IMG/VR virus record: IMGVR_UViG_3300048562_000077
Location: 1-25,070 of that record
Source of the DNA: a virus
Lineage: Duplodnaviria; Caudoviricetes
Direction: 5' to 3' (one strand)
Length of the DNA: 25,070 nucleotides
Part shown: positions 1 through 25,070 of the stretch, in pieces
Numbering within the stretch: position 1 is the stretch's first letter
Layout of the letters: each line of letters starts with the position of its first letter
Translations under genes and position numbers: made by a program
The notes under the pieces: model-generated
Seen by the model: the letters and a program-made list of their open reading frames with translations, nothing else
Databases searched by the model: none
Told to the model about the DNA's origin: nothing

Positions 1-411
1 ATGACCAACAAGAACCAGATCGCTGGACAGGCAGCACACAGCCAGGTCGATCACACTGTCTACAACGCTAACGCGAGTTACCTCGACACCGAGGTCCAGA
101 TAGTGAATGAACCTCTGGCCAATCCTCAGATCGCATACCGAGCAAGCATCGGTCAGCTCCTGCAACTGCGTCAGACGTTGGCTGCCTCATACGAAGCAAC
201 ATACGAAGCAACATACGACATCACAACTGCTCTGTACGGCTCAGTGAAGCCATCCCTGTCCCAGCTGACCACTGCGAACTCGGACCTTAGCGAGGCACTC
301 AACATCCTAATCCTCGTTGTCTTTAATCCGACCGCCCCACTCTCGAAGTCCCATGCAGACCGGCTGGTGAAGGCGCTTTGCTCGTTGATCGACTCGCGCC
401 TACCAAAGTGA
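1..411 (+). CDS. hypothetical protein (136 aa)
   Basis: Open frame from the first base. The upstream RBS is outside the window and I see no recognisable motif. Contains a YEAT-YEAT duplication. Confidence 0.4.
   Translation: MTNKNQIAGQAAHSQVDHTVYNANASYLDTEVQIVNEPLANPQIAYRASIGQLLQLRQTLAASYEATYEATYDITTALYGSVKPSLSQLTTANSDLSEALNILILVVFNPTAPLSKSHADRLVKALCSLIDSRLPK
188..218 (+). repeat. 12-bp tandem repeat CATACGAAGCAA x2.5
   Basis: Copies at 188-199 and 200-211, plus partial CATACGA at 212-218. In frame with ORF 1..411. Confidence 0.85.
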
Positions 412-436: not shown

Positions 437-440
437 CCGT

Positions 441-618
441 CAGTACGTTGTGTTCCTAGTGATCGTAAAACATCTGCATGAAGCTCTCCTTAAGGAGCGT
501 ACATAACCCAACAACTCCAGAACACAGGAGTTGGGACTGAACTTGGAGAGGGTTTTGTGTTCCCCTTTGCTCTCTCGAACTAAAAGGCCGCTCGTCTAGT
601 CCCGAGCGGCCTTTTTCT
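441..618 (+). ncRNA. candidate structured small RNA (~175 nt)
   Basis: Lies between the TAAATA motif (431-436) and an intrinsic terminator (582-616), with no credible ORF. Hairpins at 486-497, 512-533 and 547-568. Loop GAACACA (520-526) is complementary to loop TGTGTTC (556-562). Confidence 0.55.
582..616. terminator. bidirectional intrinsic terminator
   Basis: AAAA-GGCCGCTCG(586-594)-8 nt loop-CGAGCGGCC(603-611)-TTTTT: a perfect 9-bp GC stem with A and T tracts on either side, between convergent units. Confidence 0.85.
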
Positions 619-985
619 TTGCTCTGGCTTTGTTGAGACGCTCACGACGGGCTTCGTTGGTGATGAGGTGCTGCTCGATCTCTTTCTTCTTCACGGGTAC
701 GCAAGGGTTCTTCCAGAGCCATAGAACCTCGTACCACGCTGGGCGTGGTCTTCCAGCTCTCTTCCACTCTTCACGAGCCTCACGCCACGGCAGAACGAGG
801 TTCGGGTGCTCTGTCTCCCAGACATCCAAGGCCGCACAGAGCGCGTCGTACTTTGCATACGCCTTCTCAATCTCATCGCCGAGCGTTCCATCGCGGATGC
901 ACTCGATGAGGTCTTCAGGCAGGTGGAGGCTTCGCAGGACGTTGCAGTCCTTTTTCCTTCGGTAGTACGTCGCGTCTTTACTCAT
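596..985 (-). CDS. hypothetical basic, Trp-rich protein (129 aa), probably leaderless
   Basis: Protein-like composition. The stop lies in the terminator loop. A - strand TAAATA (997-992) ends 6 nt before the ATG and there is no SD. Confidence 0.65.
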   Translation of the reverse strand: MSKDATYYRRKKDCNVLRSLHLPEDLIECIRDGTLGDEIEKAYAKYDALCAALDVWETEHPNLVLPWREAREEWKRAGRPRPAWYEVLWLWKNPCVPVKKKEIEQHLITNEARRERLNKARAKKKAARD

Positions 986-1059: not shown

Positions 1060-1494
1060 ATGACCGACGAGACACTTCCAGTCGCCGTTAGCGACGATGC
1101 CATTGACGCCTCAACAGAAGCCTATCTAAGGGCTGACAACATTCTTGAGTCGATCAACGCGAACTTGCCGGACGGCAAGAAGCTACTTCCTATCCCAAAA
1201 GAGTACGTCTTCAAGAAGCGAGACCGAGAGATTGTCTCCGCTGCGTTTCACGGGGCCTTTGAACTGGCTGGCGGTCTGCCCCGCTTTGTCGCTTGGGCGC
1301 ACCAGAACCCAACACAGTTCTACTCGCTCTACGCGAAGTTGCTCCCGTCTGAGACCCAGTCCGGCGTCAACACCAACATCACCATCGTCTCTGCAATTCC
1401 AGAGATTCCATCAGATCGCACCACCATTGACGAGTGCGGCAAAGCCGCGGTGGCTGAGTTCACTGAAGTCGATGATTTCGACGATCCCGAATGA
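1060..1494 (+). CDS. putative terminase small subunit
   Basis: SD GGAG at 1052-1055 and ATGA overlap with the large terminase. The GGxxxFxxWAxxNPxxFYxLxxKLLP segment is a pattern I associate with small proteins preceding TerL. Confidence 0.7.
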   Translation: MTDETLPVAVSDDAIDASTEAYLRADNILESINANLPDGKKLLPIPKEYVFKKRDREIVSAAFHGAFELAGGLPRFVAWAHQNPTQFYSLYAKLLPSETQSGVNTNITIVSAIPEIPSDRTTIDECGKAAVAEFTEVDDFDDPE

Positions 1495-2915
1495 CGGCCT
1501 TCGTCCACCACTACAAGCCCCGCTCCTACTTCAAGTCCTTTCACTCTAGGACGCAGCGCTTTGCCTGCATCGTAGTTCATCGCCGTGGCGGTAAGACCTA
1601 CGCAGTCATCAACGACATGGTAGTGCGCGGCCTGCGCACGAAGAAGAAGAACTGGCGCGGTGGGTACATCGCGCCCTTCCTCGGTCAGGCAAAGGACGCC
1701 GCCTGGCAGCCGCTGCTAGACGCCGTTGAGGGTATTCCGGGGATCAAGATTTCAAAGAGCGACCTTACGGTCACCTTCCCGAATGGCGCTCGTATCCGCC
1801 TTTACGGTGCCGACAACCAAGAGGCAATCCGTGGTGGCTACCTCGACTACGCCGCCATCGACGAGTACGGCGACATTCACCCTTCAGTGCTGGGCACCAT
1901 CGTTATGCCGATGCTGTCTGGCCGGCGCGGCGTGCTGGTCATCATCGGCACCCCAAAGGGTCAGAACCAGTTCTTTGCCCGCTTTGAGAAGGCACAAGCC
2001 CGTCCAGACACTTGGTATCACGCCTACCTCCCAATCACCAAGACCGGGGAGGAAGCGCTCTCCTATGAGGACCAGCGCGAGGTACGGGAAGAGCTTGAGG
2101 ACCCTGAGTGGAACCAAGAGTTCCTCTGCTCATGGACCGCCGAGTTCCGTGGCTCCTACTACGCCACACAGCTTGAAGCGCTACGCAACAACGTCGTCCC
2201 TGGCCGCATTGGCAAGTTCCCATACATTCCGGGCCATAAGGTCTTTGTGGCGATGGACGTTGGCCGCCGTGACGCCACTGCAATGTGGTACTGGCAGTAC
2301 ATCGCTGGCCGCGTCAACGTTTTTAAGTATTTCGAGAGGACGGGCCTAGACGCCGATGAGGCGTGTGATGTCCTCGACGCTGAGTGTGTCCCGTTTGACA
2401 CGGTGTTCCTGCCACACGACGCCACCCACGAAACGTTCCAGTCCAGAAAGTCAGCTCTCGACACATTCATCAGTCGTGGGCTCCCTGCTCGCAAGGTGCC
2501 GAACCCAGACAAGGGCAACCGCATCTATCACGGCATCGACGCCAGCCGAAAGGTGCTTCGCACATACCCAATCGACTTCGACGAAGTTGGTTGCAAGGGT
2601 GGGCTTGAGGCGCTTGCCAACTACTCACGAAAGTACGACCAGAAGAAGCAGGTCTACTCCGACACTCCGAACCACGACAAGTGGTCGCACGGTGCTGACG
2701 GCTTTCGCTACGCCGCCTGCGCCATCAGTCCTACCGAGATAGCCCGCTCTAAGGAGCGCGCCGAAGCGGTCACTCGCACGGTGCCTGGTCTGCGCGGACC
2801 TCTAAATAACTCGAAGCCGCTTCTGCTCAAGCGCCAGACGCTTGATGAGCAGTTGGCAGAGCACGAACGCAAACAGCGCCAGCTCGACAAGAACAAGTAC
2901 AGGGTCAACTACTAA
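1491..2915 (+). CDS. terL: terminase large subunit
   Basis: Walker A HRRGGKT, Walker B AAIDEY, motif III IGTPKG, nuclease acidic motifs MDVGRRDATA and HDKWSHGADGFRY; 474 aa. Confidence 0.96.
   Translation: MTAFVHHYKPRSYFKSFHSRTQRFACIVVHRRGGKTYAVINDMVVRGLRTKKKNWRGGYIAPFLGQAKDAAWQPLLDAVEGIPGIKISKSDLTVTFPNGARIRLYGADNQEAIRGGYLDYAAIDEYGDIHPSVLGTIVMPMLSGRRGVLVIIGTPKGQNQFFARFEKAQARPDTWYHAYLPITKTGEEALSYEDQREVREELEDPEWNQEFLCSWTAEFRGSYYATQLEALRNNVVPGRIGKFPYIPGHKVFVAMDVGRRDATAMWYWQYIAGRVNVFKYFERTGLDADEACDVLDAECVPFDTVFLPHDATHETFQSRKSALDTFISRGLPARKVPNPDKGNRIYHGIDASRKVLRTYPIDFDEVGCKGGLEALANYSRKYDQKKQVYSDTPNHDKWSHGADGFRYAACAISPTEIARSKERAEAVTRTVPGLRGPLNNSKPLLLKRQTLDEQLAEHERKQRQLDKNKYRVNY
2803..2808 (+). promoter_or_regulatory. 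TAAATA motif inside terL 3' end, upstream of portal
   Basis: CTCTAAATA about 110 nt before the portal start, within the C-terminal extension of TerL beyond the last nuclease motif. Confidence 0.45.
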
Positions 2916-6438: not shown

Positions 6439-6451
6439 CCCGGTGTAAATA
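6439..6451 (+). promoter_or_regulatory. putative late promoter CCCG-GTG-TAAATA for capsid operon
   Basis: Matches the CCG-N3-TAAATA consensus, just downstream of the scaffold stop. Confidence 0.65.
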
Positions 6452-6456
6452 AAAGC

Positions 6457-6734
6457 AGAAGAACAACACACAGACGCGGCTGATCGATTGGTTTCAGTCA
6501 GCCGCTAACTGTGGGCGTAGATGATCGTGGCCAGCGAGTTCCACCCCAACCATTGCAAGGTTGGTCATTGGAGCTGACAAGCACGGCGATCTACACGCTC
6601 GACCTCAAGTCTTAGAGAAGGCCAGCGAGCCGACACGTTCACTCTGAACGCCAGTCGAGCTGACAAGCACGTTCCCTGAAGGCGTTGACGGTTCCTAACA
6701 CGAAACCGCTTAACGATTCATTGGAGAACTACAA
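6457..6734 (+). ncRNA. structured 5' leader of major capsid gene with tandem RNA motif
   Basis: Stems at 6469-6513, 6514-6600, 6620-6671 and 6678-6720. Duplicated blocks GGCCAGCGAG (6529, 6620) and GAGCTGACAAGCACG (6571, 6657). Confidence 0.7.
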
Positions 6735-8282: not shown

Positions 8283-8295
8283 CCCGCTGTAAATA
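8283..8295 (+). promoter_or_regulatory. putative late promoter CCCG-CTG-TAAATA
   Basis: Begins 5 nt after the terminator U tract and is identical to 424-436. Confidence 0.7.
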
Positions 8296-23607: not shown

Positions 23608-24285
23608 CTAAGTTTCTTGAGCCCTCTGCGCTTGTAGCACGTTGAAGTAAGCGGACTCCTGATCCATCTCTCGGTCACGCTCACCTGAGCGTTCCTCACT
23701 GCCATTGAAGGGATCAGGATAATCCTCCTGTTCCTTCATGCTCTTCACTGTCTCGTCATGTTCGTTCTTGGCGTTGGCCAACTCTTGAGCGGACTCCGTC
23801 TTGGCACTTTGGATAGCGCCCTGCCCTAGGAAGAAGCCCGCTACCAGCCCAGCCAGAGCCCCTATCAAGTCGTACCACTTGTAGCCGATTAGGACCGCAC
23901 CCACTCCTATGGCAGCGGCCAGCCACCACGGCGGTGTACCAGCCTTCTTTTGAGCCTTCGCTAGTTCCTTCAGCGAATCGGAAATGTAGATCTTTCGCTT
24001 TAACGCTTCCTTCTTCTCAATCTTGCGTCGAGTCTCGATCAGCTTGCAACGGAGTTCTTTGTCCTCAACCGAGAAGTAGGCATCACGCATCTTGCCCCTG
24101 AAGAAGTCGAACTCATCAGCAAAGTATTCGTCAGGAGTGCACTCATCACCCATCGCACCGAGCGGAATGAAGCGACCCTCAGAAGCGCGAACCATGAGCG
24201 CCGTGATCCCTGCCTTCTCTTCGAGGATCGCGCACTCGGCTTCGAGAGCGTCGATTTCCTTTTGTACGTCGTCAGTGCTGCTCAT
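23608..24285 (-). CDS. membrane protein with two-helix hydrophobic hairpin flanked by coiled coils
   Basis: WWLAAAIGVGAVLIGY and LIGALAGLVAGFFLG segments. ATGA overlap with the upstream gene. Confidence 0.8.
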   Translation of the reverse strand: MSSTDDVQKEIDALEAECAILEEKAGITALMVRASEGRFIPLGAMGDECTPDEYFADEFDFFRGKMRDAYFSVEDKELRCKLIETRRKIEKKEALKRKIYISDSLKELAKAQKKAGTPPWWLAAAIGVGAVLIGYKWYDLIGALAGLVAGFFLGQGAIQSAKTESAQELANAKNEHDETVKSMKEQEDYPDPFNGSEERSGERDREMDQESAYFNVLQAQRAQET

Positions 24286-25070
24286 GCCAACCCCTTGTAG
24301 GCGAGCTTCAAACTGTCTTTGTAGGAGGTTTCGTTGACGCTCTCTGTCCAGTTGAGGTCTGGAAAGCGCACTCCCTCCATGACCCTATTCATGAACGTGC
24401 TGAGCATGATCGCCTTCAAGCTGGCGTCCGCTTGATCCGCATCCAGCAGTGACGGCATATCCATCGCGTGTCGCACTTGATACTCTTGCCATCCACACAT
24501 GCACGAAAGGTACGGGTAGAACCAATCGCGGCTGGTTTCTGAGTTGAAGTCTTTGAATTCCGTCCGCATAGCGTTAAAAATGTGTGCCCATGCGTGGCTG
24601 ATTCGATAGCGCATGAGGATCGGGTTCCACACATCATCCCAGGACTTCACCTCTGGGAATTGGTGCATGAACTCCTTGATGGGCTTGTAGTGTTGAGCGA
24701 CCTCGACCAACTTCGACTTCAGCTCCCCGCTGATGCCGTGAATGCCACGTAGTCCTGTCGGGTCTTCCACAGGCGGCGGGTCCATGACCAGCACTTGCAA
24801 CTCAGACATTCCTAGGATCTGCTCTGAGAGAACCTCTCTGTTCGCCATGCGAGGGTCCTCGCTGCCAACGACTTGGAGTATTTTCGTCAGCATCTTCTCC
24901 GCTTCACTAGCGATGAAGTCCTTAGAGAAGTCCTTGGTCAGCTCGTGCTGCTCAGACCAGTAGCGACGGATAAGGGTAAGGCCGAACGCCACCGTCGGCT
25001 GCTTCAAGAGCTTTGCGACTTCCCGTTCCTGACGGTGCTTGTCCACCAGATCGAACAGCTTTCCCAGCAT
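24282..25070 (-). CDS. hypothetical protein (262 aa)
   Basis: Long ORF with globular composition, starting at the window edge and coupled to 23608..24285. Confidence 0.8.
   Translation of the reverse strand: MLGKLFDLVDKHRQEREVAKLLKQPTVAFGLTLIRRYWSEQHELTKDFSKDFIASEAEKMLTKILQVVGSEDPRMANREVLSEQILGMSELQVLVMDPPPVEDPTGLRGIHGISGELKSKLVEVAQHYKPIKEFMHQFPEVKSWDDVWNPILMRYRISHAWAHIFNAMRTEFKDFNSETSRDWFYPYLSCMCGWQEYQVRHAMDMPSLLDADQADASLKAIMLSTFMNRVMEGVRFPDLNWTESVNETSYKDSLKLAYKGLA

Follow-up and report, generated by a model that had tools for sequence, protein, structure and literature searches.

Few phage small RNAs have a known structure or target. In the ColE1 system the kissing of RNA I and RNA II takes place between two molecules, and the c4 RNA of P1 and the IsrK RNA of Gifsy-1 are grouped with the CI RNA of P4. 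As described in PMC4825925, the P4 CI arrangement comprises a segment complementary to seqA and seqC, which lie upstream and downstream of it, a short untranslated leader of a temperate element and then a termination site. The pRNA of phi29 is 174 nt long, possesses a three-way junction and pairs its CE and D loops between molecules; in the same source, pRNA is restricted to phi29-like motors and the large terminase is its structural equivalent elsewhere (PMC5066667). The RNA origins of mycobacterial prophages, according to PMC7157519, have a small RNA of several hairpins next to a long non-coding region. PMC10690425 mentions 14 candidate RNAs that lie upstream of a putative large terminase; two short motifs had no match in four of its supplements. 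A literature search for a phage non-coding RNA with a kissing loop and terminase found none, nor did a search by title and start of abstract for the RNA described here or for a TAAATA promoter.

The window (the whole stretch of 25,070 nt that was analysed) is the virion module of a podovirus, with large terminase, portal, a gene at the scaffold position, major head protein and tail genes; it contains 0 tRNA or tmRNA genes. Its large terminase matches phrog_2 (E 2e-36). Among annotated phages, even the nearest are remotely related, with terminase identities of 35% (Rhodoferax phage P26218) and 29–33% (Pelagibacter phages). A closer clade consists of 20 metagenomic or prophage loci with 41–49% terminase identity to the window phage, and the closest relative by terminase (P0007) is 75% identical, with P0008–P0010 and P0027 at 47–54%; the terminase-alignment scan covered 5 of the 64 parts of IMG/VR, so that these relatives are a lower bound. 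A tyrosine integrase (Pfam) is encoded in two clade records, and one clade locus (L237) sits within a Massilia genome. The window proteins are also on record on an 873-kb contig, a recurrence which suggests that this contig carries an integrated prophage. The window phage is probably a temperate podovirus. A contig that overlaps the window, L010, reaches 2.9 kb further upstream and differs by 1 base, located outside the unit studied here; about 28 kb of the phage genome are thereby covered, as against 35–37 kb in relatives.

Our reading of positions 437-619, which we put forward as a tentative one, is that they are a small non-coding RNA gene of this probably temperate podovirus, with kissing hairpins, serving as an accessory regulator and not as a part of the packaging apparatus. 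That the segment is a transcription unit is, judging from its sequence, highly probable. The features concerned are as follows.

1..411, + strand: upstream 136-aa ORF of no family, with TAAATA 5' of it in the overlapping contig L010
424..436, + strand: promoter-like motif (GC-rich run plus TAAATA), an exact 13-mer that recurs at 8283
442..447, + strand: start signature AGTAYG, pairable with 497-502 and also present in the kissing-loop RNA of relatives
443..507, + strand: 5' domain with several weak alternative folds (helix probabilities mostly 0.1-0.35 with the start at 443)
448..456, + strand: upstream copy of the 9-mer TTGTGTTCC, a possible transient competitor for loop 1
512..533, + strand: hairpin 1, predicted by partition function, with a 7-bp stem and an 8-nt loop 519-526 (7-mer 520-526)
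546..576, + strand: hairpin 2, predicted, with an 8-bp stem 546-553/569-576 and a 15-nt loop 554-568 (7-mer 556-562)
582..619, both strands: two-way intrinsic terminator read from the sequence, with a 13-bp stem and an 8-nt loop 595-602
596..985, - strand: convergent 129-aa gene, stop codon in the terminator loop, own TAAATA at 992-997
1060..2915, + strand: putative small terminase and large terminase genes, with their own TAAATA at 1009

At 1060, a 144-aa gene without family match is called small terminase from its position only. Family and fold searches with ORFs 1-411 and 596-985 gave no family (neither Pfam nor PHROG for the latter) and no convincing fold. ORF 596-985 has homologues in L077, L079 and L080 (37–41% identical); its counterpart, a divergent gene of 130–143 aa, is a fixture of the clade and could, speculatively, be the factor that reads the TAAATA motif. 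Within ORF 1-411, two exact 12-nt tandem copies (188-211) encode a YEAT repeat. At the other end of the window, past the tail module (23608-25070), two minus-strand ORFs of 225 and 262 aa without PHROG or significant Pfam family are likely cargo genes.

The sequence TAAATA is found 10 times on the plus strand of the window, for 0.78 copies expected. Six of the 10 are intergenic, though non-coding DNA makes up 4% of the window, and the other four lie 5–112 nt upstream of gene starts. The single minus-strand copy is 5' of ORF 596-985; at 992-1014 it forms with the plus-strand copy a back-to-back pair that serves this ORF and the putative small terminase. Of the 20 clade loci, 16 have a divergent TAAATA pair 5' of the gene at the small-terminase position, some of these loci being nearly identical in sequence. 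From this distribution TAAATA likely behaves like a phage promoter; we take it to resemble the T4-type late promoters. The promoter-like start that the preliminary description attributed to the unit is thus borne out by over-representation of the motif, and transcription would start at about 437-443. The same description called the RNA 'late', a timing that finds no support because TAAATA also heads a primase and helicase operon in one relative (L084); in other relatives as well, it is found 5' of genes beyond the virion module. The L084 operon is preceded by a structured TAAATA leader (2473-2680, single copy), in which an 8-nt loop is complementary to a later segment. Two other occurrences are worth recording. 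In the window, a TAAATA-led gap with short internal repeats (6446-6734) lies 5' of the major head gene; its counterpart in eight relatives keeps a 57–75-aa ORF with a conserved start, the longest ORF of the window gap being 18 aa, yet short DNA blocks align with the relatives. In L266 (1448-1530) and L269 (17374, minus strand), a short TAAATA-driven unit with a terminator directly follows the integrase gene, and the two have in common a short block 5' of the terminator.

The strong terminator said to bound the unit on its other side is supported both by its sequence and by the predicted stem, whose probability is 0.96-0.97 in each variant of the start. It is two-way by sequence, since the stop codon of ORF 596-985 lies in its loop, and it also ends this opposite-strand gene. 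There is no terminator-like site between ORF 1-411 and the unit: a transcript of ORF 1-411 would, going by the sequence, continue through the unit into the terminator. The unit had also been described as free of ORFs. Taken strictly, this does not hold, the terminator containing the end of minus-strand ORF 596-985 and the unit a 20-codon ORF (478-540), without clear ribosome-binding site, and an 8-codon GTG ORF at 557.

A motif check of the window placed every motif of the preliminary description where that description had put it, with all coordinates correct. The partition function gave the same first hairpin, with a stem 512-518/527-533 (probability 0.80-0.94) and a loop 519-526 that is unpaired at 0.91-1.0. 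For the second hairpin, the sequences of the 4-bp stem initially proposed, 549-552/563-566 around the loop 553-562, are there, but an 8-bp stem (546-553/569-576) is preferred, with a mean pair probability of 0.75-0.99; the 7-mer 556-562 is still in a loop. Forcing both initial stems costs 5.4 kcal/mol (-52.8 versus -58.2). Upstream, no single fold dominates in the 5' domain (443-507) for a start at 442-443. The two long-range pairings suggested earlier, 443-447/498-502 and 440-444/536-540, are present in sequence; they are alternatives to each other, and the second requires a start at or before 440. The domain includes a 12-nt palindrome at 486-497 (palindromes of at least 12 nt occur in 46 of 2000 shuffles). 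A dimer driven by this palindrome was rejected, its predicted energy being ordinary, and so was, as the main fold, an additional kiss of 534-539 with the terminator loop, which costs 4.6-7.2 kcal/mol. A small self-cleaving ribozyme was also looked for: the hammerhead core motif is absent from both strands of the unit, and there is no ribozyme family among the Rfam matches. Small RNAs that sponge CsrA/RsmA carry many GGA motifs in hairpin loops; here four GGA and one ANGGA were counted, mostly in stems.

The 7-mers 520-526 and 556-562 are exact complements, each located in a predicted hairpin loop. How much this means depends on the way it is counted. Of 5000 shuffles, 63% contain some 7-nt complementary pair, 2.6% a 9-nt direct repeat and 1.3% a 7-mer complemented at two places. 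A 7-nt match joining the loops of two predicted hairpins was obtained in 0/1500, 0/1500 and 0/3000 shuffles of three sub-regions. Among 2760 natural non-coding strand-windows taken from related loci it was obtained in three, of which two are the RNA of relatives presented below and one is A/U-rich. Among 44 distinct IMG/VR matches to the pattern TAAATA..GAACACA..TGTGTTC, both 7-mers were unpaired in one, the window sequence itself. The loop complementarity pointed out in the preliminary description therefore exceeds chance. From these statistics and the predicted folds the match is probably real; that the loops actually kiss is, on the same modelling, somewhat probable. In ensemble energy, the price of leaving the two 7-mers unpaired is 0.7 kcal/mol, to be set against -7.3 kcal/mol for the duplex, no pseudoknot penalty being counted.

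The alternative that best survives is that an ordinary promoter and a two-way terminator insulate convergent genes (or express a short peptide), the loop match being a coincidence. We find this rather unlikely, in spite of several observations that fit it well. The z-score of the fold is -3.14 for 437-618 because of the terminator; the body (437-581) gives -0.08, i.e. it folds no better than shuffled sequences. ORF 596-985 needs a terminator anyway, the unit has no homologue (see below), the 20- and 8-codon ORFs are there, and a lenient, energy-free hairpin rule finds a 7-nt loop match in 27 of 930 TAAATA-anchored segments. What this alternative leaves aside is the match between predicted loops, never reached in the 1500 shuffles and with about one unexplained case in the 2760 strand-windows, and the signatures in common with an RNA of relatives. 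A promoter motif 150 nt 5' of a terminator with no good gene in between also calls for a reason, and the 20-codon ORF is without the clear ribosome-binding site that most window genes have.

In the mechanism that we favour, the phage promoter would yield an RNA of ~180 nt, folding as hairpins on a string. Loop 1 would dock onto loop 2 in one molecule through a 7-bp loop helix, for which the 12-nt linker and the 15-nt loop should, we reason, leave enough slack. The docked RNA would be compact, with both loops covered until a partner opens or binds them, and it may act as an accessory regulator of early or replication genes of the phage itself. In the ~28 kb covered, no phage target stood out; given the 35–37 kb of the relatives, the target may lie in the missing part.

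An attenuator or immunity switch of the P4 CI type is a second possibility: loop 1 would pair with either 448-456 or 555-563, in cis or on another nascent transcript, and thereby set termination. One loop with an upstream and a downstream complement, followed by a terminator, is indeed what PMC4825925 reports for CI with seqA and seqC. The three-part pattern occurs in just the 1.3% of shuffles given above, and in L091 a gene directly follows a terminator related to that of the unit. We nevertheless hold such a switch to be unlikely. There is no sense-strand gene behind the terminator, the next plus-strand gene having its own motif at 1009, and the nested fold with the upstream copy is 8 kcal/mol worse. 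Pairing between the 448-456 copy and 520-526 is transient: its probability is 0.2 when the transcript ends at 530 and 0.0 afterwards, so that the stable switch first proposed through this copy appears weak. The high probability of the terminator stem whatever the start speaks in the same direction, as does the lack of an Rfam match. The self-oligomerisation also proposed receives no help from the predicted dimer energy, which is ordinary (189 of 300 shuffles are as good, in a nested model blind to loop-loop contacts).

Homologues of the unit were sought by several routes. An nhmmer search of 241 loci found only the identical contig, blastn against phage and plasmid collections no homologue, and pattern scans of IMG/VR (8, 44 and 67 loci) only the identical contig or nothing; five whole virus records and the small-terminase scans contained none either. 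As these searches gave no alignable homologue, covariation lends no support to the window kiss. In Rfam, no family matches the window or the relatives at gathering score; up to E 10 there are seven matches. The DNA downstream of the divergent gene was then read in 13 clade loci, all 41–49% identical in terminase, with homology to ORF 596-985 shown for three and positional for 10. A similar unit is present in 0/13, so that homologues upstream of related terminases, which the preliminary description had proposed to collect, are not found at this position. In L086, facing TAAATA motifs surround 170 unrelated bases, without such a terminator. The position occupied by the unit thus holds varying cargo in the clade, which argues against a part needed for packaging.

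Such a variable position would suit a small RNA acting in trans, as antisense or decoy, on host or phage messages or on a host defence protein, the kiss masking its seed. Loop 2 is rich in C and U, and there are weak, sub-threshold Rfam matches to terminator-bearing small RNAs (suhB, 26.1 bits versus a cutoff of 41). Loop 2 can also pair with the ribosome-binding region of an upstream, leftward gene of L010 at -17.3 kcal/mol, but 203 of 1000 shuffled loops equal this value and the site was rejected as an antisense target. The unit has no repeat array of the kind seen in type III antitoxins. Taken together, we regard a trans-acting role of this sort as distinctly unlikely.

The RNA of relatives alluded to above (hereafter the cousin RNA) is TAAATA-driven and was found at four places.

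L091 1484-1606, + strand: cousin RNA
L092 88-209, + strand: cousin RNA
L237 1283-1391, - strand: cousin RNA
L252 692-842, + strand: cousin RNA

These amount to three distinct sequences (L091/L092, L237 and L252). The first three loci came from a scan for TAAATA followed by a terminator, without any kissing criterion; L252 was added by a pattern scan. The cousin RNA is ORF-poor and ~105–145 nt long (103–117 nt in L091, L092 and L237). The 7-nt loop of its first hairpin is exactly complementary to a 7-nt loop of its 3' hairpin. In the 3' stem, both partners have changed in 4 of 13 pairs; the loops, the first hairpin and the kiss (7/7 pairs) are invariant. The stem is therefore supported, and the kiss predicted only. 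Just one of the three has the 5-bp first hairpin in its minimum-energy fold. In L091 and L237, the 5' end can also pair with an arm of the 3' hairpin, with a matching change between the two, which suggests an antiterminator form. L252 has a hairpin, a partner hairpin and a separate terminator, in the same order as the window unit.

Kinship of the window unit with the cousin RNA, if distant, is somewhat probable from sequence signatures. AGTAYG occurs within 12 nt of TAAATA at 4 of 190 distinct sites. Of 33 distinct, strong terminator-like hairpins whose loops have at least 6 nt, four carry the loop CTWGWCC; in both cases the four are the window unit and the three cousins, these signatures having been picked after the comparison. 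The terminator loop 595-602 is one mismatch away from the 3' kissing loop of the relatives, a proximity that a random 8-nt loop reaches in 0.27% of cases. The rest of the unit is dissimilar. Alignments of its body with the three cousins do not rise above shuffles (401, 217 and 150 of 500), and a covariance model built from the three sequences finds only the terminator (15.1 bits, E 0.083; unrelated stretches reach 13.1). The first hairpin with loop GGACAAG is absent from the window, where a look-alike at 528-544 costs ~7 kcal/mol of ensemble energy; the window kissing loops differ from those of the cousin in both sequence and position. No further member was found among 401 and 110 genomes, apart from the Massilia one, and no new one in 60 loci or 50 virus records; scans for variants with changed loops gave none.

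In L091, the cousin terminator is directly followed by a ribosome-binding site, a 310-aa gene without known family and an HNH gene. In L237 and L252, what comes after it is the 5' end of the RNA in an inverted copy (13 and 10 bp) and a non-coding region, in which the two have a 115-nt segment in common. The 310-aa and 523-aa genes of this supposed replication slot have no family match. A second conserved unit, a 75-nt hairpin plus terminator, directly follows an HNH gene (L091 2912-2995, L092 1505-1598, L237 1799-1882). In a distant phage, L154, the segment 3670-3760 has a pair of hairpins whose 6-nt loops are exact complements, ahead of a terminator and a gene. From where the cousin RNAs sit, a regulatory role of the window unit in replication or lysogeny can be envisaged by analogy, as a doubtful possibility: the step to replication control is weak, because identified replication genes are present only in L084 and its homologue L077. 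A bolder proposal would make all of them one clade family of kissing-loop RNAs, with loops re-coded between lineages, that controls replication or lysogeny through loop recognition between copies; the window unit would be a three-copy, switchable member, able to oligomerise and lodged in a cargo slot beside the packaging genes. We consider this quite improbable. If the kinship itself is true, it establishes an RNA family absent from Rfam and suggests control at the level of RNA in a podovirus clade about which little is known.

The features could also be DNA-level sites, two dyads with a common inverted 7-bp core (recombination sites or operators) and a third copy beside the promoter, since complementary loops are inverted cores in DNA, relatives have tyrosine integrases, and L237 and L252 carry the inverted 13- and 10-bp copies; this is very improbable, given that the cousin 3' arms change yet keep pairing (in keeping with a folded strand rather than with protein-read arms), that the window dyads differ in arms and spacer (8 versus 15 nt), that the 6-mers are not clearly enriched (9 versus 5.7 and 15 versus 10.5 expected), and that L010, as the one contig compared, shows no inverted form. 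Direct repeats within the convergent gene, after the par model of pAD1, were rejected, there being no match longer than 10 nt outside the unit.

Set against known systems, the preferred reading of 437-619, a gene for an RNA with an intramolecular kiss, departs from each of them. The comparison with the pRNA of phi29, implied in the preliminary description, draws on a similar length (~175 nt for 174 nt in PMC5066667), two complementary loops and the 440 nt that separate the unit from the putative small terminase gene. Here, however, every fold that retains both loops places the hairpins next to each other, separated by a 12-nt linker, and no three-way junction joins the loops; these can meet within one molecule, and the large terminase of the phage is of the standard kind, which that review (PMC5066667) treats as structurally equivalent to pRNA and ATPase together. 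With 0/13 relatives carrying such a unit here, the cousin RNA more than 8 kb away from the terminase gene wherever a single locus carries the two, and the ordinary dimer energy, the proposed link to packaging is left without support; a pRNA-like self-oligomerising RNA would be the most surprising outcome if true and is very unlikely.

The resemblance to P4 CI and c4 is that 520-526 complements both 449-455 and 556-562, ahead of a terminator. The window unit differs from them in having a single 7-nt element, the downstream copy of which is in a hairpin loop, and a minus-strand ORF next to it, with no sense operon behind a strong intrinsic two-way terminator; furthermore, none of these families is among the seven matches in Rfam up to E 10. 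As for ColE1, an overlapping primer transcript is not known for the window unit, and docking is proposed to be intramolecular. A likeness to RNA-based control of replication comes from L010: its ~900 non-coding bases at 1991-2916 contain 14 pairs of inverted repeats, one of them perfect over 18 bp, and stop just 5' of the point where the window begins, with one ORF between them and the unit; this region, a candidate origin or long RNA, matches no relative, and no homologue of it was found among the fetched loci.

The closest likeness in kind is to the cousin RNA, with which the window unit has in common the clade, TAAATA, the AGTAYG start, the CTWGWCC 3' loop and complementary 7-nt loops; the cousin is shorter, its first hairpin kisses the 3' hairpin, and its body does not align with that of the window unit. 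The unit has clear ends, a predicted 7-bp contact between its loops and, in three related phages, shorter cousins, and so lends itself to a direct test. To conclude, it appears from the predicted folds that 437-619 probably encodes an uncatalogued regulatory RNA with an intramolecular kissing-loop fold, possibly kin to this three-member family of the clade.
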